Positions 1 to 13,826 of a DNA stretch of 64,000 bases are shown in pieces; the stretch's first letter is position 1, and each line of letters opens with the position of its first letter. The DNA lies in the NCBI GenBank assembly GCA_965205485.1, contig OZ242180.1, positions 4,096,001 to 4,160,000 of the forward strand. Reading direction: 5' to 3'. The notes below the pieces were generated by a model. The model was not told the DNA's origin and did not search any database. It saw only the letters and a list, made by a program, of their open reading frames with translations. A program made the translations under genes and the position numbers. This DNA is from Candidatus Latescibacterota bacterium (GTDB lineage: Bacteria; Latescibacterota; UBA2968; GCA-2709665).

Positions 1-3000
1 CGTGCTCCGACAGGAAACGCGTCCGGACGCCGCCGGAGGTTCGCTGGTGCGATATGAGCTTCAGTTGCTTTTCCATTTCGGAAAAGCGCCGGTCGGGAAC
101 CACCGCGTCCCACACCCGGCCCGCCGCCAGGTTTCTCATCTCCGCCGGCGTTCCCGTATACAGTAGACGCCCCTGGTCCAGAACCGCCAGCCGATTGCAG
201 CTTCCCGAGATATCTTCCACGATATGCGTGGAAAAAATCACAATGCGCTCCTGACTTAACCTGGCGAGCAGGTTGCGAAACCGGATGCGCTCCAGCGGAT
301 CCAGCCCCGCGGTGGGCTCGTCCACGACGACGATCAGCGGGGCGTGCAGGAGCGTCTGCGCGATGCCGAGGCGCTGTTTCATTCCGCCTGAAAAAGAACC
401 GATCGGATCGTCCCTTCGTTCGATCAGATTGACCTGCTCCAGAGATTCGATCACCCGGGTCTCGCGGGTCTTCCGGTCCTTGAAGCCCTCGAGCAGCGCT
501 CTGTACTCCAGAAATTCGAATGCCGAAAGGTGTCCGTAGTTGCCGAAGTGCTGCGGCAGGTACCCGATCAGTCCGTGGATCGTACCCTTGTTCAGGATGT
601 TTCTACCGTCGATCAGGATGGACCCGTAGCTGGGTTCGAGCACCCTGCAGAGAATACGCATCAACGTTGTCTTGCCGGCGCCGTTCGGACCCAGCAGACC
701 GAACATCCCCCTGCCGATTTCCAGGTTGACGCCCGCCAGCGCTCGAAATTCCGGCCGGGGAATGCCTATAAGTGGAACGGCCGACGCCAATCGATAAAAC
801 CACCGTCGCGGCCGCGCAAAACGTCCTGGCAGGTTATCGGGACTGATCTCGCCCGTCCGCACCCTGTCGGCGAGCCGGCGTAACAGGCGATAGACGGCCC
901 AGATCCCGAACGAGGCAAGTGTGACCGATAGCAGGTCCAGCCGCCAGTGTACGTAGGCGACAAATGCCAGCGGGAGAGCGGCTTTGTGCAGCAGTTTGAC
1001 GATGCGGGCGAACGGCGCCGGCGGATGCCATTGGCGGAGTTCTCCGATACATCGACCCACGTGGGATACCATAAAGGCCAACGCCAGCACGTGCAGATAG
1101 ATCCAGATTTCGTCTTCGAAATAGGTCGTGAACAACGACAACAGCGCGAGCATTGGCAGTTTCCAGAAGAGGGCATCGCGAACCGCCCTGCGGTCCCGCG
1201 GATCCAGGCCCGTTTTCATCAGCCGCCCCCGCCGGCGCTCGTCACGCGCCCACTCCCGCACAAAGCGCCCGGGCGCGCCATAAACCTTGGTGAGGTTCCT
1301 CAGCTGAATGGCGTGCACGGCGCTCGACACGCGGCGGGCTGCGACTCGCGCGTGATGTACCCGTTGAACGATCCACACTGCTGCCAGAAATGAGCCCCAG
1401 ATGGGCAATATGGACAGGCTCGTCCAGAAAATGCTCTCATATCGGACGTAAATGCCATATCCGGCCGCGGCGGTCGCCAGCAGTGAGAACGTGACGCCGG
1501 CAAACCCGATGCCGTCCAGCCAGTCACCGATCTGATCCAGCCCCATATATACAACAGGAATCAGAATCAATGTGGACATCATGGAAACCGACAGACCTCC
1601 CAGCACCGTGATTGCAAACGGCGGCCAGATCTCAAAATCGCCGCCGAATTCCAGCGCGAGCGGGAGAACGCCGAGCAGCGTCGTGGCCGTCGTCATGAGG
1701 ATGGGTCGCAGGCGGGACCTCGCTGCGGTCAGTACAGCGCGTTCGCGGCGGTACCCGAAACGGGACCTGAGTACACCGACCGCGTCGATCAGGATGATCC
1801 CGTTGTTCACGGCAATACCCAGCAGGACGATGAAGCCCAGGAGCGCCATGGGACCCTCCTGCTGGCTGAGGCCCGTTCCTGACATCATCAGCGCCCAGCA
1901 GGAGCCGATGGCGGCGGGCGGAAGCGTACACAGGATGATGATCGGAGACGAGAGCGATTCAAAAAGCGACGCCAGAATCATATAGATCAGAACCGCGGCT
2001 ATTGCCATCATCCAATAGTAAATCATCTCCTCATGCGCCTCGATGATTTCGATTGAATAACCCTCTGGCAGCACCATATCCTGCAGTGTCGTGCGTACGA
2101 CCCGCCTCGCGAGTTCCAGCCGTGGCTGTGAATCCAGGACTTCCGAAGGAAACCTGTAGGAAACCACGAGCCGGCGGGCCTGGTCGGTCCGCAGCAGGCT
2201 GCTTCTGCCCTCGTCAGTCCGGACCCGCGCCACCTCGTCCAGAGGTACATACTGGCCGGCCTGGTTCAGAATACGCGTCCGACGGAATTCAGCCAGCCCG
2301 TAACGGTCGCGGTCCTCCTCTTCGATTGTTCGCACTTCAATGGGTATCTCGGTCGCGTCGGGCAGCAGAAACGGAACGGTCGTACGGAATCCGTCCCATC
2401 GGGTGTCGCCCATTGCGGCGAGGACCTCCTGCGCGCCGAGCCGCCGGTCGAACAGGGCGGCCGCATCGGGCAAAACCTGAACCTCGGGCGAACTTCGTTC
2501 GGCGTCGGCACGTACACTGTTGGCATCCACTTCCTCGAGTTCCTCGAGCCTGTACGACACGTCGTTCGCAATCATCGTCAGTATCGTAAAGTCATATCCG
2601 CGTATCACAACCTGCTCGTTCGGAGCGGTCCCGGTCAGATCGAAGCCACCCGAGCTGCGTCTCCGGCGTTGACCTATCCCCTGCCCGCGGCCGCCCCTCC
2701 CCGCCCTGGACCTGCGTTCGTATCCCACGACGCCACCCTGTACATTCTGAAGCTTCTCGTCCAGCAGTTCCTTGATTTCATCCAGCGAGATTCCGCCGGG
2801 CCGGTCGGAACGGTTGAGCAACATGACGGTTACGTCGGCCTCGGCCTCCCGGACAGACGTCGTAAACCGGTCCAGTCCGGACACGTCCCGAACGGATTCC
2901 TCCACCTGTTTCACCACGTCATCCGTGGCATCCAGCGTGGACCCTTCCGGCAGATTCACGTAGACCGTAAAGCGCGTCTCTTCCCGCCTTACCTGCTGTT

Positions 3001-4621
3001 GAAGCAGGTAGAAGAAGGCCAGAACGAGCGTCAGCAGGAGGGCGCCGCCCACCGCCAGGACCACCGATGTGCGGTGGCGCAAGGCGGCCTTCAGCAGCAG
3101 GGTATACCGTTCCAGCAGACCGCGGACGTCCGGCGGCTTCCGGACCTCACGGCTCAGTGCGCGGACGGCAAGCGCGGGAACCAGTGTAAGCGCAACCAGC
3201 AGTGACGCCAGAAGCGGAAACACCATGGACAACGCGAGTTCGCGCAGCAGGTCCCGTGCGTCGCTTTCGATAAACAGAACGGGCAGGAATGCGGTTACCG
3301 TGGTTGCCGTTGCCGCGACCACGGCGCGCCCGACTTCGGAAGCCCCGTCACGTGCAGCGTGAGCCGGCGATTTGCCTCGCTCGTAGTGTTTGAAGATATT
3401 CTCCATCACCACGATGCCGTTGTCCGCGAGCATTCCCATCGCGAGGGCAAGGCCGCAGAGCGACAGCACGTTGACGGACAGCCCGCCCGCGTACATAAGA
3501 TTGAAGGTCATCAGAAGTGAAATCGGAATGGCCAGCAGGAGAACCGAAACAAAGCGAAGGTTACGAAGAAACAGAAAGAGTACGATCAGACCGAGTACGG
3601 CGCCGACGACGGCCGCCTGCTTCAGGGTGGAGAGCGCCCCGGTCATCAGGTCGGCCTGGGAGGAACTCACGCCCAGTTCCACACCTTCACTTTCCAGGTC
3701 CCGGTTCAGGCGCCCGACGGTGGCTTCCACCGCAGCGGCCACTTCGATCAGATTCGCTTCGTCATCCTTCTGGATCCGTACGCCCACCGACGGTTTGCCA
3801 TTGACTCTGTGCCGGTCGGCCTGCTCCTGAAGGCCGTGCCCGATTCGGGAGATGTCGCCCAGCCGGAGCGTGCCGTCTTCGTTCACGACGAGATCGCGAA
3901 TCTGTCGCAGGTCCGTGAACTGTCCCTGAATACTCACCGAATAGGCCCTGTTCCCGTCGAATACCCGGCCCAGGTACTCACGCCTCCGGTTATGGCTGTT
4001 CAGTCGCGTCCGTACCTGTCCCGCCGAAAGGCCGTGCGCCTCCAGCAGGATCGGATCCAGGACGATTTCCACGGCGCTGCGGCGCCCGCCCAATACGGAC
4101 ACGTTCACGACGCCGTCGACAGACTCCAGTTCGGGCCGGATCTTTTCCTCCGTGAACTCACGCAACGGGTTCAGGTCCCAGTCGGCAAGCACGTGAAGCT
4201 CCATAATACTGCTGCTGAGGTCTGTCGAATCGAACCTCCGTACATCGGTCTGCGTGCGCTCGGGCAACGCAGGCTGCAATCGGTTCAGGTTGCTCTGCAG
4301 CTGAAGAAGGGCGAATTTCATATCCACGTCGGGGGCGTAGGATATCCTGATACCGCCCCTGTTGGCCGCCGCGAACGATTCCATCTCCTGAACGCCGTCG
4401 AGTTTTCCAATCTCTCCTTCCACCGGAATCAGCAGGTCTCTCTCAACCTGCTCCGGAGAGGCCCCCTGCAGCGTCAGCGTGACAAACACCTCAGGAAAGA
4501 TCAGCTCGGGAAAGAGCTGAATCGGAAGCCTCGTCCACGACACGACGCCCAATATGGCGAATGCAGCGAAGAACATGGACGTGGTCACCGGCCGCCGGAC
4601 CGCAAGATCGGGGAGAATCAC
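1..4621 (-). CDS. RND (AcrB-family) permease fused to extra TM segments and a C-terminal ABC ATPase; 3'-partial, >1540 aa
   Basis: Manual translation from GTG 4621 (GTGA overlap with upstream stop): MILPDLAVRRPVTTSMFF..., TM4 GMLADNGIVVMENI, TM10 GIAVNNGIILID, RLRPILMTT. The same frame continues to Walker A GPNGAGKT (691-668), signature FSGGM (394-380), Walker B VVVDEP and H-loop STH. Frame checked at 4621, 2740, 1309, 691 and 10. Its absence from the ORF track is consistent with no stop before the edge. Confidence 0.9.
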   Translation of the reverse strand, partial: MILPDLAVRRPVTTSMFFAAFAILGVVSWTRLPIQLFPELIFPEVFVTLTLQGASPEQVERDLLIPVEGEIGKLDGVQEMESFAAANRGGIRISYAPDVDMKFALLQLQSNLNRLQPALPERTQTDVRRFDSTDLSSSIMELHVLADWDLNPLREFTEEKIRPELESVDGVVNVSVLGGRRSAVEIVLDPILLEAHGLSAGQVRTRLNSHNRRREYLGRVFDGNRAYSVSIQGQFTDLRQIRDLVVNEDGTLRLGDISRIGHGLQEQADRHRVNGKPSVGVRIQKDDEANLIEVAAAVEATVGRLNRDLESEGVELGVSSSQADLMTGALSTLKQAAVVGAVLGLIVLFLFLRNLRFVSVLLLAIPISLLMTFNLMYAGGLSVNVLSLCGLALAMGMLADNGIVVMENIFKHYERGKSPAHAARDGASEVGRAVVAATATTVTAFLPVLFIESDARDLLRELALSMVFPLLASLLVALTLVPALAVRALSREVRKPPDVRGLLERYTLLLKAALRHRTSVVLAVGGALLLTLVLAFFYLLQQQVRREETRFTVYVNLPEGSTLDATDDVVKQVEESVRDVSGLDRFTTSVREAEADVTVMLLNRSDRPGGISLDEIKELLDEKLQNVQGGVVGYERRSRAGRGGRGQGIGQRRRRSSGGFDLTGTAPNEQVVIRGYDFTILTMIANDVSYRLEELEEVDANSVRADAERSSPEVQVLPDAAALFDRRLGAQEVLAAMGDTRWDGFRTTVPFLLPDATEIPIEVRTIEEEDRDRYGLAEFRRTRILNQAGQYVPLDEVARVRTDEGRSSLLRTDQARRLVVSYRFPSEVLDSQPRLELARRVVRTTLQDMVLPEGYSIEIIEAHEEMIYYWMMAIAAVLIYMILASLFESLSSPIIILCTLPPAAIGSCWALMMSGTGLSQQEGPMALLGFIVLLGIAVNNGIILIDAVGVLRSRFGYRRERAVLTAARSRLRPILMTTATTLLGVLPLALEFGGDFEIWPPFAITVLGGLSVSMMSTLILIPVVYMGLDQIGDWLDGIGFAGVTFSLLATAAAGYGIYVRYESIFWTSLSILPIWGSFLAAVWIVQRVHHARVAARRVSSAVHAIQLRNLTKVYGAPGRFVREWARDERRRGRLMKTGLDPRDRRAVRDALFWKLPMLALLSLFTTYFEDEIWIYLHVLALAFMVSHVGRCIGELRQWHPPAPFARIVKLLHKAALPLAFVAYVHWRLDLLSVTLASFGIWAVYRLLRRLADRVRTGEISPDNLPGRFARPRRWFYRLASAVPLIGIPRPEFRALAGVNLEIGRGMFGLLGPNGAGKTTLMRILCRVLEPSYGSILIDGRNILNKGTIHGLIGYLPQHFGNYGHLSAFEFLEYRALLEGFKDRKTRETRVIESLEQVNLIERRDDPIGSFSGGMKQRLGIAQTLLHAPLIVVVDEPTAGLDPLERIRFRNLLARLSQERIVIFSTHIVEDISGSCNRLAVLDQGRLLYTGTPAEMRNLAAGRVWDAVVPDRRFSEMEKQLKLISHQRTSGGVRTRFLSEH

Positions 4622-7600
4622 GCCGCACTCCTGTTTCTGAGCCGCTCGATCAGTTCGTAAACAACCGGAATCACCACCAGGGTCATCAACGTGGACGTGA
4701 CCAATCCGCCGATGACCGCCACCGCCATTGGCGCCCGCAGACGCGCGCCTTCACCCACACCCACCGCCATGGGCAACAGCGCGAGAATGGTTGTGGCGCT
4801 GGTCATCAGGATCGGACGGAGCCGATCCTGCGCACCCTGGAGTACGGCCGTTCTGACGTCGGACGCATTTCGCCGCAGCTGGTTGATGTGGTCCACCAGA
4901 ATGATGGCGTCGTTGACGGCGATGCCGCCCAGCATAATCGCTCCGATGAATGCCATCACGCCGAATGCCTCACCCAGACCCCAGAATGCGAACACCACCC
5001 CGATGCCGGCCAACGGCACTGTCAGCATGACGGTAAACGGATGCAGCAAAGACTCGAAGAGCGACGCCATGACCATGTAAACGAGCACGACGGACAACAG
5101 CAGGGCGAACTGCAGGCCTCCGAATGATTCGGCCCGCTCACGTTCCTCTCCGGTGATGGTTACACGATATCCGTGAGGAATGGCCATCTGCCCCACCGCC
5201 TGCCTGATCTGCGCCGCCGCCTGGCTCAAGACCATGCCTTCGGCCAGAAACGCGGATACCCTCCCCACCCTGCGCTGCCCGTCACGCAGGATTTCTCTTG
5301 GACCCTGGACCACGCGAAGATCGGCGAGATCTCCCAGCGTGAGCATCGCGCCGTCCGGACCGTCGATTCTGGCGTGTTCCAGCTCACGAAGGTCCACGTC
5401 TGCGAAGCCCACCCGGATGGTTCGCTCGCGCTGGTCTTTGGAGAGTTCGCCGGCTTCCTCCCCGCCCAGTCTGCGCTCGAGTTCACGCACGAGGTTCTGC
5501 GAGGTAAGGCCGAACGCCGCGGTGACATCCGGCCGCAACACGACGTCCAATTCGGGCTGGCCATCCTGAAAGCTCGTTCGGACATTATACACCGTCGACA
5601 ACACGTCCATGCGCTGTTTCAGATCTGCCGTCAGTTCCCGAAGCAGTACCAGGTTCTCGCCACTCACCTCCACCTGTACCGGTGCGGCGCCTCCACGTAC
5701 AAGTCCTTCCAACGCAGATTTATGGAGTCGATAGTTAACTTTGATATTCGGCACGTCCAGGAGGGCCGCATCCAGTGCGGCGGTGAGTTCGGTGACACCA
5801 CGACGGCCCGCTTGCGGGCCCAGGACGACCGTCAGTTCGGCCCGGTTCGGACCCGTGGGCTCTCCCACGGCCGTGAACCGGTTCGGATCTGTTCCCACCC
5901 GCAGGTAGATGTGCAGGGCTTCCTCTCCGGCAACCGCCTGCGCAATAGCCGCGACGCGTCTCCCCACCCTGTCTGTTGACTCGAGTCTCGTGCCCTCCGG
6001 CATCGCGAGGTCCACGTGGAGTACACCCTCGTCTTCCGTGGGAATGAACGACGTATGGAGGGACGTGGCCATATGGAAGGCCGCCACAAGGCAGGCGATC
6101 AGTACCGCTATCGTGCGGCCCTTGCGGTTGAGCGACGCATCCAGAAACCGTCTGAACGTCCGCGCCCCGGCGACCCCCGTGGACCCGCGCGGATACCGCC
6201 TGAACAGCCGTGCGGTCATCATGGGGACCACCGTCATCGCCACGGCGAGAGATGAAACCAGTGAAAACGCCACGGTCCAGGCCTGTTCCTTGAAGAGTTC
6301 GCCCGCCAGCCCTTGAAGATACACGATGGGAAGAAACACGGACACCGTCGTCAGCGTGGAAGCCAGTATCGCGACCCCGACCTCGCCGGCGCCCTTGACG
6401 GAGGCTGCTGCGGCTGTTTCACCACTTTCGATATGCCGGTAGATGTTCTCAATTACGACAATGGCGTTATCCACCAGCATGCCGGCGCCGAGTGCGAGAC
6501 CGCCAAGGGTCATTACGTTCAACGTCAACCCCTGGAAATACATCAGCGTGAACGTGGCGAGAACGGAAATCGGAATGGCAAGGCCAATCACCAGCGTTGC
6601 AGTCCATTGCCGGAGCGCGGCAAGCAGCACGCCCACGGCCAGAAACGCGCCGATGACAGCCGCCTCTTCAACTTCGCTTACCGCGCGTTCGACAAAGCGT
6701 GCCTGGTTTTCCACCACCGTAAACCGGATGCCGGCCAGATCGGCTTCCAGGCTCCCCAGTTCCTGCAGTACCCCGTTCACCACTGAAGAGGTATTCGCGC
6801 CGGCTTCCTTGTAGACCGAAAGTCCTACGCACTCCATGCCGTCCAGACGGACGATGGTTTCCCGTTCCTTATACTGGAGGGCCACGGTACCCACGTCGCT
6901 GACCGTGACCGGCACGCGCTGAGTCGATGCGTTTTCTCCGCCGTTCGAAGATTCGCCGCTGCGTTCGCCGACAACCAGGTCGTTCACGTCCGCCAGGTCG
7001 GTCAGCCGTCCCAGGCCCTTTACCAGATAGGATTGCTGGCCGTCCTTCAGCGTTCCTCCGGAGACATCCGAATTCGCTTCACGAATCCGCGAGACCACCG
7101 TTGCGGAATTGACGCCGAACGCTTGCAGGAGATAGGAATCCAGTGTGACGCGGATCTCCTTTTCGGCTCCCCCTTCGATTTCAACCGAAGCCACCCCCGA
7201 CAGCCCCTCGAGCCTGGGCCGGATGATCGTCTCCACACTGCCCAGCAATTCATCTGGATCCTGCCAGTCCGCCCCCGAAACAGCCAGACGCATCACCGGC
7301 AATGCCTGCGGGTCTTCCTGCGTAACGTCCAGACTCGTGATATCGGGGTCCGATGCGTACCGCGCCACTTTCTTCTGCACGTCGAGAACCGCGAAATCCA
7401 TGTCCGCATCCCACTCGAACTCCGCGATCACCACGGCCTGCCCGGAGCGGGACACGGAATGTACGCGTTTCACGTGCCGTACCGTACCGATGTCCCCTTC
7501 CAGGCGCTGCGCGTACCGTTCCTCCATCTCCCGGGGCGTCTTTCCGGGAAAACGCAGGTCGACGGTGATCACGGGAGAACGCAGGTCGGGCAACAGGTCC

Positions 7601-7701
7601 ACATCCAGCCGGTCCAGCGAGATCCAGCCGAGGAGCGCTACCGCCAGCGTCGCCATCGCGACCGTCACGGGATATTTCGTGGAAAATTCGGGCAATGACA
7701 T
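4618..7701 (-). CDS. RND efflux permease (AcrB/AcrD/AcrF family)
   Basis: ~1027 aa with GMLVDNAIVVIENI and RLRPILMTS. Start moved to ATG 7701 (MSLPEF) because the upstream extension lies in the MITE. Confidence 0.95.
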   Translation of the reverse strand: MSLPEFSTKYPVTVAMATLAVALLGWISLDRLDVDLLPDLRSPVITVDLRFPGKTPREMEERYAQRLEGDIGTVRHVKRVHSVSRSGQAVVIAEFEWDADMDFAVLDVQKKVARYASDPDITSLDVTQEDPQALPVMRLAVSGADWQDPDELLGSVETIIRPRLEGLSGVASVEIEGGAEKEIRVTLDSYLLQAFGVNSATVVSRIREANSDVSGGTLKDGQQSYLVKGLGRLTDLADVNDLVVGERSGESSNGGENASTQRVPVTVSDVGTVALQYKERETIVRLDGMECVGLSVYKEAGANTSSVVNGVLQELGSLEADLAGIRFTVVENQARFVERAVSEVEEAAVIGAFLAVGVLLAALRQWTATLVIGLAIPISVLATFTLMYFQGLTLNVMTLGGLALGAGMLVDNAIVVIENIYRHIESGETAAAASVKGAGEVGVAILASTLTTVSVFLPIVYLQGLAGELFKEQAWTVAFSLVSSLAVAMTVVPMMTARLFRRYPRGSTGVAGARTFRRFLDASLNRKGRTIAVLIACLVAAFHMATSLHTSFIPTEDEGVLHVDLAMPEGTRLESTDRVGRRVAAIAQAVAGEEALHIYLRVGTDPNRFTAVGEPTGPNRAELTVVLGPQAGRRGVTELTAALDAALLDVPNIKVNYRLHKSALEGLVRGGAAPVQVEVSGENLVLLRELTADLKQRMDVLSTVYNVRTSFQDGQPELDVVLRPDVTAAFGLTSQNLVRELERRLGGEEAGELSKDQRERTIRVGFADVDLRELEHARIDGPDGAMLTLGDLADLRVVQGPREILRDGQRRVGRVSAFLAEGMVLSQAAAQIRQAVGQMAIPHGYRVTITGEERERAESFGGLQFALLLSVVLVYMVMASLFESLLHPFTVMLTVPLAGIGVVFAFWGLGEAFGVMAFIGAIMLGGIAVNDAIILVDHINQLRRNASDVRTAVLQGAQDRLRPILMTSATTILALLPMAVGVGEGARLRAPMAVAVIGGLVTSTLMTLVVIPVVYELIERLRNRSAA

Positions 7702-7715
7702 CGTATCGGCCCTTA

Positions 7716-7927
7716 GAAGCTGCCTTAAAATTCCCAGCGGTCTTCGCACGGCTGCAAAAGCGCCGGTCGGCGTTGGTCAAACCCACCCAAGAGTGGCGAG
7801 GGGCGCGCAGCCACGATACATTGGAGATGGGTGGATTTTCCCGTCGGCGCTGCGCGCCCCTCGCGCCTCATAACCGGCACTTTTTCGCTCGCGCTCGGGA
7901 ACTCACCGGTAATTTTAAGACAGCTTC
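7716..7927. mobile_element. MITE copy 1 (212 bp)
   Basis: TIRs GAAGCTGCCTTAAAATT / AATTTTAAGACAGCTTC, TTA direct repeats at 7713-7715 and 7928-7930, internal similarity to copies 2 and 3. Confidence 0.85.
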
Positions 7928-8198: not shown

Positions 8199-9281
8199 TC
8201 ACTGCCGCCCCGCCGCGTCCTCCCCGGTTACCCGCACGCGCGTACGGGACCGCAGCGTCTCGTAGTTGCTGGTAATGAGGCGCTCGCCCGGTTCAAGCCC
8301 TTCGAGAATCTCGACCTGCTCCGGTCCCTCCAATCCCAGCCTTACGTCGCGCATCTGCGCCCGCCCCTCCTCCTCGACGAACACCACCTTGCGATTCTGG
8401 CGCGTCAGGACGAAACGTCGCGGGATCACCACCGCATCCTCGTGAGACTCTGTGACAATCTCTGCCTTCACGAACATCCCCGGCCGTAACATCAGGTTAG
8501 GATTTTTCACCGCCCCCACCACCCGGAACGTACGCGTCGCCGGATCGATGGCCGGGTCGACCACCTTGACGGTCCCCAGAAACCGTCGGTTGGGCAATGC
8601 GTAGTTCTCCACGCGCAAGACCTGCCCCGGTGAAACGGATACAATATATGCGTTCGGAACCTTGAGATCGACGAGTACCTGGTTGTAGTCCATCACCGTT
8701 GCAATGGTCGTGCGGGCCTCCACCATCGTACCCTCGGTAATATCGGCCAATCCTGTCAGAAAGCCGGTGATTGGCGTCCGAATCGTCGTCTTGGCGATCT
8801 GAACGAGAGCGTCTTCATAGTTGGATTCGGCCTCGGCGAGGGCCCGGCGCGCTTCGTCCAGATCCTTCACCGTGCTCAGTTTACGGTCGACAAGAACTTC
8901 CTGCTCGCTCAATGTTTGCTTCGCGACGGCGCGCGCAAGATCGCGGGATTCCAGACGGGCGTTTACGACAAGCTCCTTGTTCACAAGCCGGGCGATTACC
9001 TGGTTCCGGGTCACCCGCATTCCCTCCGTCGCCCGTCCTCCGACGCCCCGCGCCACATATTGGATAATTCCCTCGACCTCGGTCTGAATACGGGCTTCTC
9101 TGAAGGGCCGGAGCGTGCCCGTGGCCGCCACCGTCGCCTCCATGGTGTCCAGATGCACCGCCTGAACCGTTACGGGGACGGTCAGATCCACGGACCGCTG
9201 TTCGGTCTGCCCGCCGCATCCGGCCAGAATGGCAACAGCGGTGAATACCATACCATAACCGATCAGGACTCTTTTGTTCAA
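8199..9281 (-). CDS. RND periplasmic adaptor (membrane fusion protein), lipoprotein
   Basis: Lipobox LAGC; TTIRTPITG, VDPAIDPATRTF and LRPGMFV MFP motifs; GAGGTG RBS before TTG. Confidence 0.93.
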   Translation of the reverse strand: MNKRVLIGYGMVFTAVAILAGCGGQTEQRSVDLTVPVTVQAVHLDTMEATVAATGTLRPFREARIQTEVEGIIQYVARGVGGRATEGMRVTRNQVIARLVNKELVVNARLESRDLARAVAKQTLSEQEVLVDRKLSTVKDLDEARRALAEAESNYEDALVQIAKTTIRTPITGFLTGLADITEGTMVEARTTIATVMDYNQVLVDLKVPNAYIVSVSPGQVLRVENYALPNRRFLGTVKVVDPAIDPATRTFRVVGAVKNPNLMLRPGMFVKAEIVTESHEDAVVIPRRFVLTRQNRKVVFVEEEGRAQMRDVRLGLEGPEQVEILEGLEPGERLITSNYETLRSRTRVRVTGEDAAGRQ

Positions 9282-9325
9282 GTTTCACCTCATAAAAGGG
9301 TTATAACTCGCTGTTCACCATTGGA

Positions 9326-12300
9326 TTACCAACCTCTTCCACGCGTTTGTCCTCCGCCGCTCCGGCTGCCGCCCCCTCGCCCCCCGCGGTCGCCGCCCCG
9401 ACGGCCCCGACCGAAGTTCCACGTCGGAAGATCTTCTTCATATACCTCTTCCGGGTGGTCGGGATCTACGTACCTCCAGCGCACCGCATCGGCATAGAGG
9501 CGCCCGTTTGCCCGGTCGGACAGTTCGACACGGGCCAGCTCACCTCCCTCGAAACGGTACCGACCCATCACGTTCCAGCCGCCCTTGAGCTTGTCCGCTT
9601 CGACCGCCAGTGTATCCACCTCGCCGCCGTGGCCCACCGCCAGACTGAATTCCGTGGCCATACGCAGACGCCTGGCGAACCGGGGTTGAACGAAATAATA
9701 GTAGACGTCGTAATCCCCGCTGTGCGGCAAGCGGGCCGTCCAGACCGCCGGTTGCGCGCCGTCGCCGGGTTTCTTCCACCTGTAGTTGGTTTCATACCGG
9801 CCGAAAGAAAATGGCATCTGTCGTTCCTGCCAGTTGTCCCCTTTCAACTGCGGTCGGAGATAACGCCGCACCCTCCGGACCGGCATTTCGAAGCCTTCGT
9901 CGTCATTGTCCACGATGATCTCGGTCAATCCCGTCTCGTCTGGGGCGACCTCTCTCACGTAGGTCGTGGCGGAACCGTCCATCGGCTGCTCGGGTATGCG
10001 CAGCGGCGCCATCAGGACGCGGCGGTTTCGTGCAAAAAACGGCTCGACGCTGATTCTCGAAGGCCGTTCCCAAAGGATCAAGCCCACCTCCACTTCCTGC
10101 CCGCCTTCTATCTCAACGCCCTTCAACGCCTCGTCCTCGCTCCCCATCGCTCGAATCTGGACGAATCCGCGCCCCGGCTCTCCGTTTCGGATCCGCACGA
10201 CGACCTGATACACCATCATCCCCCACCCATCGTCCACTTTGTACGCCTTTGCCCTGGTGAGCGTATATCCCGGTACCTGGGTGCCGTGCAGCCAGTCTCT
10301 GACGAGGCGATGCAGGTTGGGTCGTTCCGCCCGGCTGGAGGAATCTCCGACAGCCGCACGTTCGAACGACTCGAAGTTGACTGCCGCGTGCCGGTTTGAC
10401 TCCTCGAATCCGCTGACCACGTCTCTGAACGTTTCGTCACCCACCACGGCCTGCATCATCCCGAACATGGAGGCGCCCTTGGCGTCGACGACCGCCCGGT
10501 AGAGTTCCGCGTCGGCATCCGGATCCAGCTCAGCAAAGGAACGCTGACGCATCTTTGACGTTACCGTATCCCACGAGACGCCTCGCGCGCCCCTGTTGCG
10601 CCGGAAAAGACCCCGGAACCTGCCCCGCCGCGAATACAGGCTTTGCTGCAGGCTGGTCTCGAGATGTTGTTGAATATGGACGGGCATTCCGCGCTTGAGC
10701 AGGGAGTAGTGTTCGCCTTCGAAGCCCTGGTTGAAGGACCAGAGGTGCGCCACCGGACTCCGGTAGATGCCGCTCTGAGACGATTCCCGCGCAAGAAACG
10801 TGCGCAGAACCGCGCTGACCAGCAGATCCCGCTTGATCCTCGCGGGGTCGTCGTTTCGTCGCCGCCGCCGCTGCATCCATTTCAGGCGCCGCTGCAGATT
10901 GAGCCGCATCAGCACGTCCTCTTCCAGCATCAGCACGCCCGGCTGCACGAGTCCACCGGCTTCCTCCCATCCGTCGTAATACCATTGTACCTGGAATGGC
11001 ACTTCCACAACCGACAGGCGTTCGTAGGGATAGGCCAGGCCGGTTTCCTGTTCAACGCTGTCCAGGATTTCGCCCAGCGTTTCGAGGGCGTCGTCCCTGG
11101 CGTCTTCGAAGAAGGTGACCTGTCTGGCATGGGCCGGATGAACGTAAACGGCGCATTGGATATTATGGATTTCGGCCTGGAAGACACGGTAGACGCCGGC
11201 GTTGAGCGAGAAAAAAGGTACAGGGCTTCGCGCCTTCCACGAATGGACCTCCCGATCGCCCTCCGCCTTCCGGCTGACCGGCATCCCCTGGGTTATAACC
11301 TCAAGTCCCGCGGGAAGAGAGATATCCAGATCCGCGGTGGCGAAGGACACGGGTCTGCCATCCTCGTGTCCGTAGTCAACGCCCGGCGAAGGATACCACC
11401 TGCTGCGGGGTGGGAGGAATACGGAATTCCCGCGAATCCAGGCGGTCAGATCGCCCTTTCTGCCCGGCCCCGCGCGCCGCTTCTGCAGACGCCTCGCATC
11501 CGGATGGCGCTTCAGATCGAATCCGCTGAGGTCAATCGAACCGTCGTATACGAACGCCAGCGTCGCCGTGCTGTCAGGCTGGAGCGTTCGGGCGACCCGC
11601 ACGACGGCGGTTTCTCGCCGCCAGTTCACAGCAGCGTCCACTCCGTTTTGCACATTCACGGATCGCAGTCTCAAACCCGGGTTGAGACTGAAAACCAGCG
11701 TGTCGAGCGGAACGGAATGAGGGTTGGAAACGCGCAAAACCGCAGTGCCCCGAAGGGGCGTCCGGTCTGACGCAAGGTCCAGGTCGAGCGTGTAATGCGT
11801 TACCGCCACGGTTGGCTGTCCGGCGTATCTCTCATGAACTTCCAGCTGCGCTGTCCTGTATGCGATGTCCGAGGCGTCGCTGTTTTCAATATACAGGTAG
11901 AGGCCCAGCGCGGCGACGAAACCACCGGCAGTCATACACCGGCCGAACCTGCGCCAGGCCCGGGACTGAGGCAGCCGCGGATACCGGTCGATTGACAATC
12001 CGAAGAAAAACAGGGCAAGCAAGGTGTAGAAGAACCGGAGTTCCACGACGCGCCGAATATCGCCGAGACCGAGCATATCCGAGTAGAACACCGGGGCGAA
12101 GAATGCGCCGAAGTCGTAGACGCCGCCGTATCGGCGTCCGAGGAACAGGAGGACGATCAGCACGTACGCGATGGTCAGCACGGTCACCGCGGCCTGCCGG
12201 CGCAGCACCGCCCCGAGGAAAAACGTAAGGGCGGACATGTAAATCAGCCCCGGCAGGTTCAGCAGAAGCAGGTACGTCAGATAGGGTCGAATCGTAAACG

Positions 12301-12724
12301 GGGCGCCCGTAATGCTGATTTTGGCCGCCTGCACGCCAAGGCTGAGTACCAGCACGATCAGGCTCAGCGTTATCAGGGCGCCCAGTACCCCCAGGTATTT
12401 GCCCATGACCAGTTCGGCGGTAGACAGCGGCCGCGCCGCAACCACCTCGTAGATTCCCGCACGTTCATCCGCCGCCCTGAAATCTCCCACAATAAACGCG
12501 ATCACCACGGTCTGGAGGAGACTGTAGACGAAAAAGGGCATATAGGCGCCGATTCCGCTCACAGATTCGAACTCGACGCCTCTGGATTCGGCGATCGCCA
12601 CGCCGATACCCAGGACAACGGGAATGAGCACGCCGATACCGCCCAGGATGCGAAACCGGATCGTACGCATCAGCATTTTGCGCTCGTATCTGGCTACAGA
12701 CAATATGGTGAAGACCGTATTCAT
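9326..12724 (-). CDS. ABC-2-type permease fused to an M1-aminopeptidase-like domain (no HEXXH seen), a golvesin/xanthan-lyase C-terminal-like domain and an RG-rich tail
   Basis: N-terminal VARYERKML plus ~7 hydrophobic segments and ARPLSTAELVMGK. HYTLDLDL, FSLNPGL and YPYERLSVVEVP are M1-like. IIVDNDD...GWNVMGRYRF...LYADAVRW is golvesin-like. ATG 12724 overlaps the ATPase stop (ATGA). Confidence 0.8.
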   Translation of the reverse strand: MNTVFTILSVARYERKMLMRTIRFRILGGIGVLIPVVLGIGVAIAESRGVEFESVSGIGAYMPFFVYSLLQTVVIAFIVGDFRAADERAGIYEVVAARPLSTAELVMGKYLGVLGALITLSLIVLVLSLGVQAAKISITGAPFTIRPYLTYLLLLNLPGLIYMSALTFFLGAVLRRQAAVTVLTIAYVLIVLLFLGRRYGGVYDFGAFFAPVFYSDMLGLGDIRRVVELRFFYTLLALFFFGLSIDRYPRLPQSRAWRRFGRCMTAGGFVAALGLYLYIENSDASDIAYRTAQLEVHERYAGQPTVAVTHYTLDLDLASDRTPLRGTAVLRVSNPHSVPLDTLVFSLNPGLRLRSVNVQNGVDAAVNWRRETAVVRVARTLQPDSTATLAFVYDGSIDLSGFDLKRHPDARRLQKRRAGPGRKGDLTAWIRGNSVFLPPRSRWYPSPGVDYGHEDGRPVSFATADLDISLPAGLEVITQGMPVSRKAEGDREVHSWKARSPVPFFSLNAGVYRVFQAEIHNIQCAVYVHPAHARQVTFFEDARDDALETLGEILDSVEQETGLAYPYERLSVVEVPFQVQWYYDGWEEAGGLVQPGVLMLEEDVLMRLNLQRRLKWMQRRRRRNDDPARIKRDLLVSAVLRTFLARESSQSGIYRSPVAHLWSFNQGFEGEHYSLLKRGMPVHIQQHLETSLQQSLYSRRGRFRGLFRRNRGARGVSWDTVTSKMRQRSFAELDPDADAELYRAVVDAKGASMFGMMQAVVGDETFRDVVSGFEESNRHAAVNFESFERAAVGDSSSRAERPNLHRLVRDWLHGTQVPGYTLTRAKAYKVDDGWGMMVYQVVVRIRNGEPGRGFVQIRAMGSEDEALKGVEIEGGQEVEVGLILWERPSRISVEPFFARNRRVLMAPLRIPEQPMDGSATTYVREVAPDETGLTEIIVDNDDEGFEMPVRRVRRYLRPQLKGDNWQERQMPFSFGRYETNYRWKKPGDGAQPAVWTARLPHSGDYDVYYYFVQPRFARRLRMATEFSLAVGHGGEVDTLAVEADKLKGGWNVMGRYRFEGGELARVELSDRANGRLYADAVRWRYVDPDHPEEVYEEDLPTWNFGRGRRGGDRGGRGGGSRSGGGQTRGRGW

Positions 12725-13626
12725 GATCCTTGCACCCCTGCGTCCCGTTCCGGATTCTCCATACCCATGAAATACACGTACGCGTCTTCGAGGTTCGGCG
12801 GAACCGGTTCGGAGTTTGCCGGCGGCTGGCCATCGCCCACAAATCTGAGGTCCATCAGGCCGCCGTCCACCGAGATCGTCACGACCAGAAACTTCCGGGA
12901 TATCGATTCGAACTCGGCGTCGTCCGCCTGCAGGCGCCACGTCTTTCCATCGGCGCGATCGACCAGTGCCCCGGGCGATCCCCTGTAGACGATCCGTCCT
13001 GCATTCAACACCGCCAGATCATCGCAGGTACTTGAAATATCGCCCACGATGTGTGTCGAAATCAGGATGGCCCGGTCTCGACTCAATTGGGCAAGGATTC
13101 CCCTGAAACGAATGCGTTCTTCCGGATCGAGTCCCACGGTGGGCTCATCCACAACCAGGATTTCCGGATCGCCCACAATGGCCTGTGCAATCCCGAGGCG
13201 CCGCATCATCCCCCCGGAAAATGTGCCGGTCCGGCGGTCCCGCACGTCGTAGAGCCCCACGTTCTCCAGCGCATCGCGCACGCGCCCTTTTCTGCCGTTC
13301 CGTCGCCGTCCGGCCGCCAGCCGGTCCATATAGTCCAGAAACTCCCACGCCGTCAGCTGTGGATACGAACCGAAGTGCTGGGGAAGATATCCCAGACTGC
13401 GACGAACTTCGGAGCGATTCCGCTGCAGGTCCCACGCTCCCACGCTTACATGGCCGGACGTTGGCGCCATCTGAGTTGAGAGAATCTTGATGAGCGTGGT
13501 TTTTCCCGCGCCGTTCGGTCCAAGCAGCCCGAAGGTCCCCTTGCCGATCTCGAGGTCCACGTTGTCCAGAGCGGGCACGGTCCCCTTTGGATAGATTTTC
13601 GTCAATCCGGTCGCAACGATACGCAT
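12721..13626 (-). CDS. ABC transporter ATP-binding protein (ABC-2/CcmA-like)
   Basis: [24 protein letters not shown]. Start moved to ATG 13626 because the upstream extension runs through the MITE. Confidence 0.95.
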   Translation of the reverse strand: MRIVATGLTKIYPKGTVPALDNVDLEIGKGTFGLLGPNGAGKTTLIKILSTQMAPTSGHVSVGAWDLQRNRSEVRRSLGYLPQHFGSYPQLTAWEFLDYMDRLAAGRRRNGRKGRVRDALENVGLYDVRDRRTGTFSGGMMRRLGIAQAIVGDPEILVVDEPTVGLDPEERIRFRGILAQLSRDRAILISTHIVGDISSTCDDLAVLNAGRIVYRGSPGALVDRADGKTWRLQADDAEFESISRKFLVVTISVDGGLMDLRFVGDGQPPANSEPVPPNLEDAYVYFMGMENPERDAGVQGS

Positions 13627-13639
13627 TGCCAGCCCCTTG

Positions 13640-13826
13640 GAAGTTGTTTTAAAATTACCGGCGAGTTCCCGAGCGCGAGCGAAAAAGTGGCGGTCAAGGG
13701 GGAAAATCCGCCCAATTTTAATGTATCGTGGCTGCGCGCCCCTCGCCACTCTTGGGTGGATTTGACCAACGCCGACCGGCGCTTTTGCAGCCGTGCGAAG
13801 ACCGCTGGCAATTTTCAAACAGCCCC
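13640..13826. mobile_element. MITE copy 2 (187 bp, inverted relative to copy 1)
   Basis: Ends GAAGTTGTTTTAAAATT / AATTTTCAAACAGCCCC, flanks TTG/TTA, long near-identical internal stretches to the reverse complement of copy 1. Confidence 0.8.

Follow-up and report, generated by a model that had tools for sequence, protein, structure and literature searches.

Introduction

In ATP-binding cassette (ABC) transporters, the ATPase domains are regarded as soluble modules that contact the membrane only through the coupling helix of their transmembrane partner. Two described systems carry additional structure in the connection between strands β1 and β2 of this nucleotide-binding domain (NBD). According to one report, the extra structure in Wzt and TagH (of the type V glycolipid exporters WzmWzt and TarGH) is basic and lies behind the adenine-stacking tyrosine at the cytosolic membrane surface, and the gate helix of Wzt, a product of the β1-β2 connection, packs on the transmembrane domains (TMDs) (PMC6379404). 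A second report places the regulatory insertion of CFTR (residues 404-435) between strands 1 and 2 and states that channels severed there work (PMC2217481). Here we analyze a window of 64,000 nucleotides (nt) from a Candidatus Latescibacterota bacterium (positions 4,096,001 to 4,160,000 of the forward strand of contig OZ242180.1, assembly GCA_965205485.1; coordinates below are those of the window), in which a minus-strand gene fuses a resistance-nodulation-division (RND) permease to an ABC ATPase whose NBD is split at this same site by 177 residues.

The Wzt and CFTR additions, which occupy the site of the insert described here, are short, and neither crosses the membrane. Wzt and TagH have a single short cytosolic helix, whereas the fusion protein has ~177 residues with two predicted transmembrane hairpins, and Wzt is a separate subunit, whereas this NBD is fused to an RND permease. 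The CFTR NBD1 insertion, ~30 residues long and part of a type IV eukaryotic channel, is soluble, flexible and phosphorylated rather than membrane-embedded. NBDs of the DrrA/GldA/NosF type, from type V (ABC-2) exporters, share with the fused NBD its structural match (4yer), its catalytic motifs and its ABC-2-like neighbours, but they are free soluble subunits with a short β1-β2 loop, and the fused NBD scores under their family cut-offs. MdtABC-type pumps, which have the stoichiometry MdtB2C, likewise combine an adaptor with two tandem RND paralogues, and MdtB is the best Protein Data Bank (PDB) match of the RND part (9lyq, E 4e-83); MdtB and MdtC, however, carry no ATPase or extra helices and have DD/KKN motifs where DN/VNN is found here. 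Export of phthiocerol dimycocerosate (PDIM) needs both the RND protein MmpL7 and the hetero-oligomeric type V exporter DrrABC (PMC11539658), but these are separate polypeptides with an MmpL-type RND, without an adaptor or TolC and without a split NBD.

In the literature searched, which covered few subscription papers, no description was found of an RND::NBD fusion or of membrane helices inside an NBD. The layout is genuine, is conserved in genomes that carry many different phylum labels, has no description in the literature searched and is built from known parts; there is a modest chance that it represents a coupled exporter of a new kind. Since the β1-β2 loop holds a pair of predicted transmembrane hairpins, the NBD sheet must close across ~180 bilayer-threaded residues, and the split NBD bears on the co-translational folding of split domains. 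The six- to seven-gene cassette links an RND pump to an ABC exporter within a single chain and would make RND/ABC cooperation on one substrate, of the MmpL7 and DrrABC kind, testable in one purifiable complex, with the free paralogue ATPase of the cassette and its four-residue loop as a natural control.

An insert at the A-loop of the fused ATPase

The fusion gene (2..4621, minus strand) is a 1,570-codon frame that starts at nt 4621, is stop-free throughout and extends 92 nt beyond the left edge of the window. In its product, Pfam assigns ACR_tran to residues 5-1027 (PF00873, E 1.5e-184, 616 bits) and ABC_tran to residues 1297-1438. The RND permease part, residues 1-1027 (1541..4621, minus strand), has MdtB as its nearest solved relative and scores below the cut-offs of both the MdtB and the MdtC equivalog models of NCBIfam (356 vs 1774 bits and 331 vs 1584 bits, respectively). 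Strand β1 of the NBD (IQLRNLTKVY, residues 1105-1114; 1280..1309, minus strand) ends in an aromatic residue at the A-loop position, Y1114, and the remainder of the NBD (2..748, minus strand), with all catalytic motifs and DrrA/GldA-like in sequence, resumes at β2 with FRALAGVNLEI, the stretch FRALAGVNL running from residue 1292, or nt 748, onward. Between the two lie residues 1115-1291, that is 177 amino acids or 531 nt (nt 1279-749) without a stop. In the free paralogue ATPase (nt 13626-12721), four residues, PKGT, separate TKIY from VPAL, and among 20 related loci, picked from 84 genomes for contig span and diversity, the β1-β2 loop of this paralogue has 3-4 residues in 18, the other two being unparsed. 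The insert is a greatly expanded β1-β2 loop of an ABC ATPase whose catalytic motifs are intact.

A preliminary description of this DNA had reported a ~177-residue insert of 531 nt splitting the fused ATPase after IQLRNLTKVY (1309-1280), merely PKGT at the corresponding site of the free paralogue, two further hydrophobic segments after transmembrane helix 12 (TM12) of the RND part and about four more, with Arg-rich flanks, inside the insert. Our residue and nucleotide mapping and the translation agree on the first two points, and hydropathy places H1 and H2 after TM12 and H3-H6 between K/R-rich stretches. The insert also lies where that description had put it, in the A-loop region, its site being the A-loop/β1-β2 connection. 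Of the span then given, 749..1545, the lower end fits, whereas the upper end misses the codon boundary at 1543 by 2 nt.

The insert has a GC content of 0.63 and a third-position GC content (GC3) of 0.73, similar to the remainder of the fusion gene; this gene-like composition, together with its presence in every clade of the NBD tree described below, rules out a recent foreign insertion. An assembly or frameshift artefact is ruled out by conservation in 244 aligned rows and by a ratio of nonsynonymous to synonymous substitution rates (dN/dS) of 0.26. Neither the insert nor the region of the two preceding and four inserted helices (2+4 helices) has a match in Pfam, NCBIfam or PDB sequences.

The nucleotide-binding domain across the insert

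Walker A, Q-loop, signature, Walker B, D-loop and H-switch are all intact in the fusion protein. Among 245 pooled proteins of at least 1,450 residues, one of which is an unrelated false match (a repeat protein), Walker A occurs in 243, the Q-loop in 241 and each of the other four motifs in 244. TIGR01188 scores the fused NBD at 167 bits, under the family cut-offs, and DrrA and GldA lead the ATPase models among the best 25 NCBIfam models. By sequence, the fused NBD is thus assigned to the ABC-ATPase superfamily as a DrrA/GldA-like member, with hydrolysis and dimerization predicted. A quick maximum-likelihood tree, whose limited outgroup consists of 14 further NBDs from this genome, places the 31 fused NBDs and the 21 free ones in sister groups (Shimodaira-Hasegawa-like approximate likelihood ratio test, SH-aLRT, 97, 96 and jointly 96).

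An AlphaFold2 (AF2) model of residues 1030-1570, built with 109 sequences, has a mean predicted local distance difference test score (pLDDT) of 92.3 and a predicted template modelling score (pTM) of 0.81, with strands at 1104-1114 and 1292-1303. Solved intact NBDs align with it from model residues 73-75, in β1, where their own residues 1-2 fall, and Foldseek concurs. The best structural match is 4yer_B (Z 29.0, root-mean-square deviation, rmsd, 3.3, 263 aligned), and 1vpl_A aligns over 234 of 238 residues (Z 26.6, rmsd 1.8 Å). In mean-field covariation over 244 rows (44,850 pairs), Q1106-E1301 comes second, N1109-I1302 third, N1109-N1299 ninth and T1111-I1302 twenty-fifth; β1-β2 pairs make up four of the top 25 couplings where 0.07 are expected, and the β1-β2 block alone among 312 comparable blocks has at least two top-25 pairs. 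At an effective number of sequences (Meff) of 170 for 305 columns, the signal outside β1-β2 and intra-hairpin pairs is too noisy for use, and the covariation is not fully independent of the model because the same family underlies both. Model and covariation together indicate that the β-subdomain of the NBD is complete, β1 pairing with β2 despite the insert. The packing of IQLRNLTKVY into the NBD sheet, which the preliminary description had named as a point on which its reading could fail, is normal by model, structural alignment and covariation alike. K1112 is present in 244/244 rows, and position 1114 is Tyr in 240 and Phe in 4.

Conservation and distribution of the insert

Homologues were drawn from a search with residues 1030-1330 (best 120 of 1,314 matching proteins, 8,000 candidates scored), a full-library search (80 representatives) and a search from a distant member (best 120 of 197 matches). 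Of the 333 proteins pooled, 245 have at least 1,450 residues; two without the Walker A pattern were left out (one family member with a variant Walker A motif and the unrelated repeat protein), which leaves 243 and, with the query, 244 rows. All 244 full-length rows carry the insert at the same site, with lengths of 166-257 residues (median 188.5). Since these rows came from insert-containing queries, a control search used the RND porter domain without the insert. It found the protein in 81 of 168 genomes of the phylum, and all 81 are among the 84 of these 168 found with the tail query; 81/81 of these control genomes thus carry the insert too. The position of the insert across homologues, put forward earlier as a check, is conserved.

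Among 15 genes from the same genus (105 pairs), the insert has a dN/dS of 0.26, H1-H2 of 0.22, the hairpins of 0.18-0.34 and β1 with the following helix of 0.135, whereas the RND and NBD cores stand at 0.04-0.07 and the small permease of the cassette at 0.09. The hairpins outpace the transporter cores 3- to 6-fold, and the comparison indicates that the insert is under purifying but clearly relaxed selection.

The closest relatives, with tail identities of 77-96%, are labelled Ca. Latescibacterota or Gemmatimonadota, and 14 of the 16 loci returned by the relative search are orthologues, the other two being unrelated ATPases. The layout is found under the labels Latescibacterota, Gemmatimonadota, Acidobacteriota, KSB1, Calditrichota, Bacteroidota and Proteobacteria, phylum names here being source labels of mostly metagenome-assembled genomes; databases give the fusion proteins generic labels only. 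Five short matches among the 8,000 scored candidates could suggest a stand-alone NBD+insert protein, and no whole gene was demonstrated among them: four are on contigs just 1.8-4.5 kb long, and the fifth is a 188-residue piece without an NBD. An apparent natural split form in one genome (G063) was dismissed as an assembly gap of Ns. One distant query found no plasmid-borne copies among 72,556 records.

Anatomy of the predicted membrane hairpins

TM12 of the RND part is followed by a short amphipathic helix and hairpin 1 (H1 1040-1061, H2 1064-1097; 1331..1531, minus strand), indicated by hydropathy, AF2 helices and covariation, in which the H1-H2 pair A1053-I1074 ranks first. H2 ends in a predicted basic cytoplasmic helix, and the basic linker from H2 to β1 has 19 residues here and 18-23 in 121 rows. 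The insert itself opens with a basic amphipathic helix (1119-1136; 1214..1267, minus strand; hydrophobic moment 0.54), placed by AF2 right behind the A-loop. It continues with hairpin 2 (H3 1144-1164, H4 1171-1195; 1037..1192, minus strand), which has a five-residue acidic outer loop and the 95% conserved W1173, and, after a length-variable K/R-rich inner loop, with hairpin 3 (H5 1202-1228, H6 1231-1255; 857..1018, minus strand), whose outer loop has four residues here and in 121/121 rows. A second basic amphipathic AF2 helix (1269-1281; 779..817, minus strand; hydrophobic moment 0.60) returns to β2. Within these helices the hydrophobic segments run over residues ~1040-1058 (H1), ~1064-1085 (H2), 1150-1164 (H3), 1171-1189 (H4), 1211-1226 (H5) and 1231-1247 (H6).

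Charge follows a positive-inside pattern over the loops: in the same 121 rows, inner loops average 4-10 K/R, and outer loops of 4-7 residues have at most 1.1. From the model, hydropathy and this charge bias, the six helices are predicted to span the membrane as three short-looped hairpins with both ends cytoplasmic; the even number of helices places β1 and β2 on the same, cytoplasmic, side. The insert had been suggested to be a possible membrane anchor and might instead have been soluble; four hydrophobic helices are predicted within it at a conserved position, consistent with an anchor. The membrane part folded alone gives a pLDDT of 94.2 and a pTM of 0.69. In one relative (G065; L039:2828-4120) the insert is ~110 residues longer, with an H5-like segment, a ~60-residue acidic loop and another hydrophobic segment, an added hairpin that keeps the helix count even in this single genome.

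HHalign relates hairpin 1 to hairpin 2 at 88.8% and hairpin 2 to hairpin 3 at 35% (51% with longer segments), compared with no more than 6.6% in 18 controls run against pairs of RND helices and with 92% and 79% for the internal repeats of the RND part. This suggests that the three hairpins, or apparently at least two of them, are repeats. Duplication of a whole unit of hairpin, β1 and gate helix is unsupported (HHalign 7% and 0.4%). Residues conserved to at least 60% inside H1-H6 in 139 diverse rows are only Trp, Pro, Leu and Tyr, with no polar ones among them. Foldseek returned no match for the membrane part at E<=0.001 (best E 0.48), a result that leaves room for a fold from an unlisted family; VIA-align matched generic hairpins of helices, at best with a Z of 8.6 (rmsd 3.9, 86 aligned), and its best 50 include no ABC TMD; and the ESM Atlas gave no usable match.

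Proposed role of the hairpins

We favour, at a probability of roughly one half, a reading in which the six helices make up an accessory collar of three hairpins, which anchors the ATPase beside the RND pump and provides no transport path. The fused NBD would dimerize with the free NBD and dock on the two ABC-2-like domains of the cassette. The result would be a type V exporter of the ordinary 2+2 make-up, joined covalently to one protomer of a heteromeric RND pump that resembles MdtBC. ATP would drive the substrate, which would be amphipathic or lipid-linked, to the outer leaflet, where the RND pump would pick it up and expel it through the adaptor and an outer-membrane factor. The collar would clamp the antiparallel β-subdomain to the bilayer and space the ABC unit relative to the RND trimer, and the conserved post-A-loop helix would lie at the substrate entry, like the Wzt gate helix. 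As to its history, the cassette NBD may have been duplicated and fused to TM12 via one hairpin, which may later have been copied into the β1-β2 loop.

Several points weigh against the collar. The stoichiometry is weakest at the small permease, for if this protein is not a TMD the 2+2 count fails: 27 of 49 members match the ABC-2 Pfam models at E<=0.01 (best 8e-8, under the cut-off), it has no real match among PDB sequences, and HHalign relates it to the other ABC-2-like domain at just 1.6%. The prediction of membrane crossing draws on hydropathy, on charge bias and on a bilayer-free model, and the cores of H3 and H5 are short (~15-16 residues) and moderately hydrophobic, H5 being marginal on a crude hydrophobicity scale. 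The packing of hairpin against hairpin is less sure given the pTM of the membrane part, and hairpins 1 and 3 are similar at just 2.8% by HHalign. Finally, a purely passive anchor alone leaves the never-lost insert unexplained.

An active role is offered by a lever, in which ATP-driven rotation of the β-subdomain moves the insert and hairpin 1, pulls on RND TM12 and thereby synchronizes or powers the RND cycle. The collar would then pass the ATPase power stroke through the bilayer to TM12, the ABC exporter would hand its substrate to an ATP-synchronized or ATP-driven RND pump, and the cassette would be a single envelope-spanning dual-energy exporter of an undescribed kind. In the Wzt report, ATP binding shifts the helix at the same site by ~8 Å (PMC6379404), and β1 in the fusion protein is pinned between hairpin 1, through its 19-residue linker, and the insert. 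The RND part has DN in TM4 (in 233/233 parsed proteins) where MdtB has DD, and VNN in TM10 where MdtB has VKKN, but RND paralogues of this genome that are not fused share the DN and VNN motifs, which are therefore no evidence for ATP drive or lost proton coupling; a degenerate proton relay was accordingly dropped as a sign of ATP drive. The RP motif of TM11 (RxRPIxxT) is intact, and for an interface that transmits force the hairpins show little conservation. We hold the lever, in its coupling as in its exporter form, to be unlikely, though with a chance that is more than token.

The post-A-loop helix could instead be the functional element, either recruiting a lipid-linked substrate as in Wzt or controlling NBD dimerization as in CFTR, with the hairpins only keeping this helix at the membrane or sensing the state of the bilayer, a doubtful proposal in our view. 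The helix is the best-conserved part of the insert (mean top-residue frequency 0.74 vs 0.44-0.54 for the hairpins; dN/dS 0.135 together with β1; G1115, P1117, G1118 and W1124 at 79-88%), it follows the A-loop tyrosine in the β1-β2 connection as the gate helix does, and Wzt and CFTR provide precedents at exactly this site. Against this, the segment at the gate position has no PDB sequence match and no likeness to solved gate helices, and the sequence type and Wzm/glycan context of Wzt/TagH are absent: DrrA/GldA models lead, and the cassette is an RND export operon. Removal of most of the CFTR insertion, moreover, alters gating little according to PMC2217481.

A monotopic insert, with its helices re-entrant or confined to one leaflet, would account for the short H3 and H5 cores, the outer loops of 4-5 residues and the His/Arg end of H5. 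AF2, however, gives helices of 21-27 residues, hydrophobic moments are low (0.09-0.17), and the ~60-residue acidic loop behind the H5-like segment of G065 resembles a periplasmic loop, which together make this arrangement improbable.

The preliminary description had suggested that the 2+4 helices could form a new half-TMD. Type V ABC exporters are described as having 6+6 transmembrane helices, with extracellular re-entrant helices between TM5 and TM6 (PMC8386196). Matching of the 2+4 helices to the ABC2_membrane Pfam models gave 0 of 49 members at E<=0.05, compared with 27 of 49 small permeases of the same loci at E<=0.01, and the H5-H6 loop has just four residues; lacking both an ABC-2 sequence match and a re-entrant TM5-6 loop, the 2+4 helices are not assigned as a type V TMD on sequence grounds. 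Although six helices equal the type V count and share a chain with an NBD, and although the ABC-2 assignment of the small permease is weak, a new six-helix TMD that pairs with one ABC-2 permease into a translocation path is very improbable: the cassette already has two ABC-2-like domains for its two NBDs in 20/20 loci, and two of each would make a complete 6+6 type V exporter in no need of a third half-TMD; the hairpins lack conserved polar residues, outpace the cores 3- to 6-fold in their rate of change, have dN/dS values of 0.18-0.34 vs 0.09 for the small permease and a mean column identity of 37% vs 52% for it in the same 49 loci; they look like simple hairpin repeats, one relative gaining a hairpin; and the insert sits at the A-loop, whereas in established ABC architecture the coupling helix docks on the NBD elsewhere.

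The cassette and its other proteins

The order of the cassette is free NBD, ABC-2-like protein with M1-like and Golvesin_C parts, an outer-membrane factor in some loci, adaptor, RND-1, RND-2::NBD and small permease. It is kept in 20/20 loci, with RND-1 in two pieces in one of them, and the five genes within flank reach are kept in 14/14 same-genus loci. The gene count is two NBDs and two ABC-2-like membrane domains in 20/20 loci, the matches of the membrane domains being under the Pfam cut-offs.

RND-1 (4618..7701, minus strand; PF00873, E 1.6e-221) is an unfused RND permease paralogue and, from synteny, the likely partner in a heteromeric pump. An RND periplasmic adaptor of the membrane fusion protein (MFP) type is encoded at 8199..9281 (minus strand; TIGR01730, above cut-off). 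The next gene (9326..12724, minus strand) encodes a protein with domain matches to an ABC-2-like membrane domain, an M1-peptidase-like domain and Golvesin_C; the M1-like domain is likely non-catalytic, because HExxH is missing in 20/20 relatives, and from its sequence the M1-like/Golvesin_C part is likely a non-catalytic periplasmic binding module that may give a hint to the substrate. The free ABC ATPase paralogue (12721..13626, minus strand), with its four-residue β1-β2 loop, is 45% identical to the fused NBD and belongs to its sister clade. The small permease is encoded on the minus strand just left of the window (L001:14193-14912); it is ~240 residues long, shows six peaks of hydrophobicity and has 13 residues that are invariant across 49 loci.

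An extra gene precedes the adaptor gene in 12 of the 20 loci (L024-L033, L035 and L036), and the three scanned encode outer-membrane efflux proteins (PF02321). The outer-membrane factor gene is absent from the cassette here (window 9281-9326) and in closer relatives. Two cassette outer-membrane factors gave no tblastn match in this genome, which has eight PF02321 frames outside the cassette.

Some features of the cassette lie apart from the insert. In one clade (P0284, P0286, P0295 and P0425, from a 17-member cluster with most proteins of 1,840-1,886 residues), ~250-290 extra N-terminal residues precede the RND::NBD fusion. This extension matches sigma-70 region 4 (PF08281; in P0286 at residues 130-175) and then has an HxxxCxxC motif, which is typical of zinc-binding anti-sigma factors; judged by sequence, the extension may represent either a genuine fusion of sigma and anti-sigma parts or an upstream gene run into frame. 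An Arg/Gly-rich low-complexity loop occurs in the periplasmic part of RND-2 (window 2640-2710, minus strand, residues ~640-660) and is Gly-rich in relatives, and the ABC-2/M1 protein ends in a comparable R/G-rich tail. A similar intergenic element stands before the RND-1 gene and before the free ATPase gene (window 7750-7870 and 13630-13800); overlapping frames at both sites share the stretch SGLRTAAKAPVGVGQ.HPRVARGAQPRYI, and the element is probably a small repeated or mobile one.

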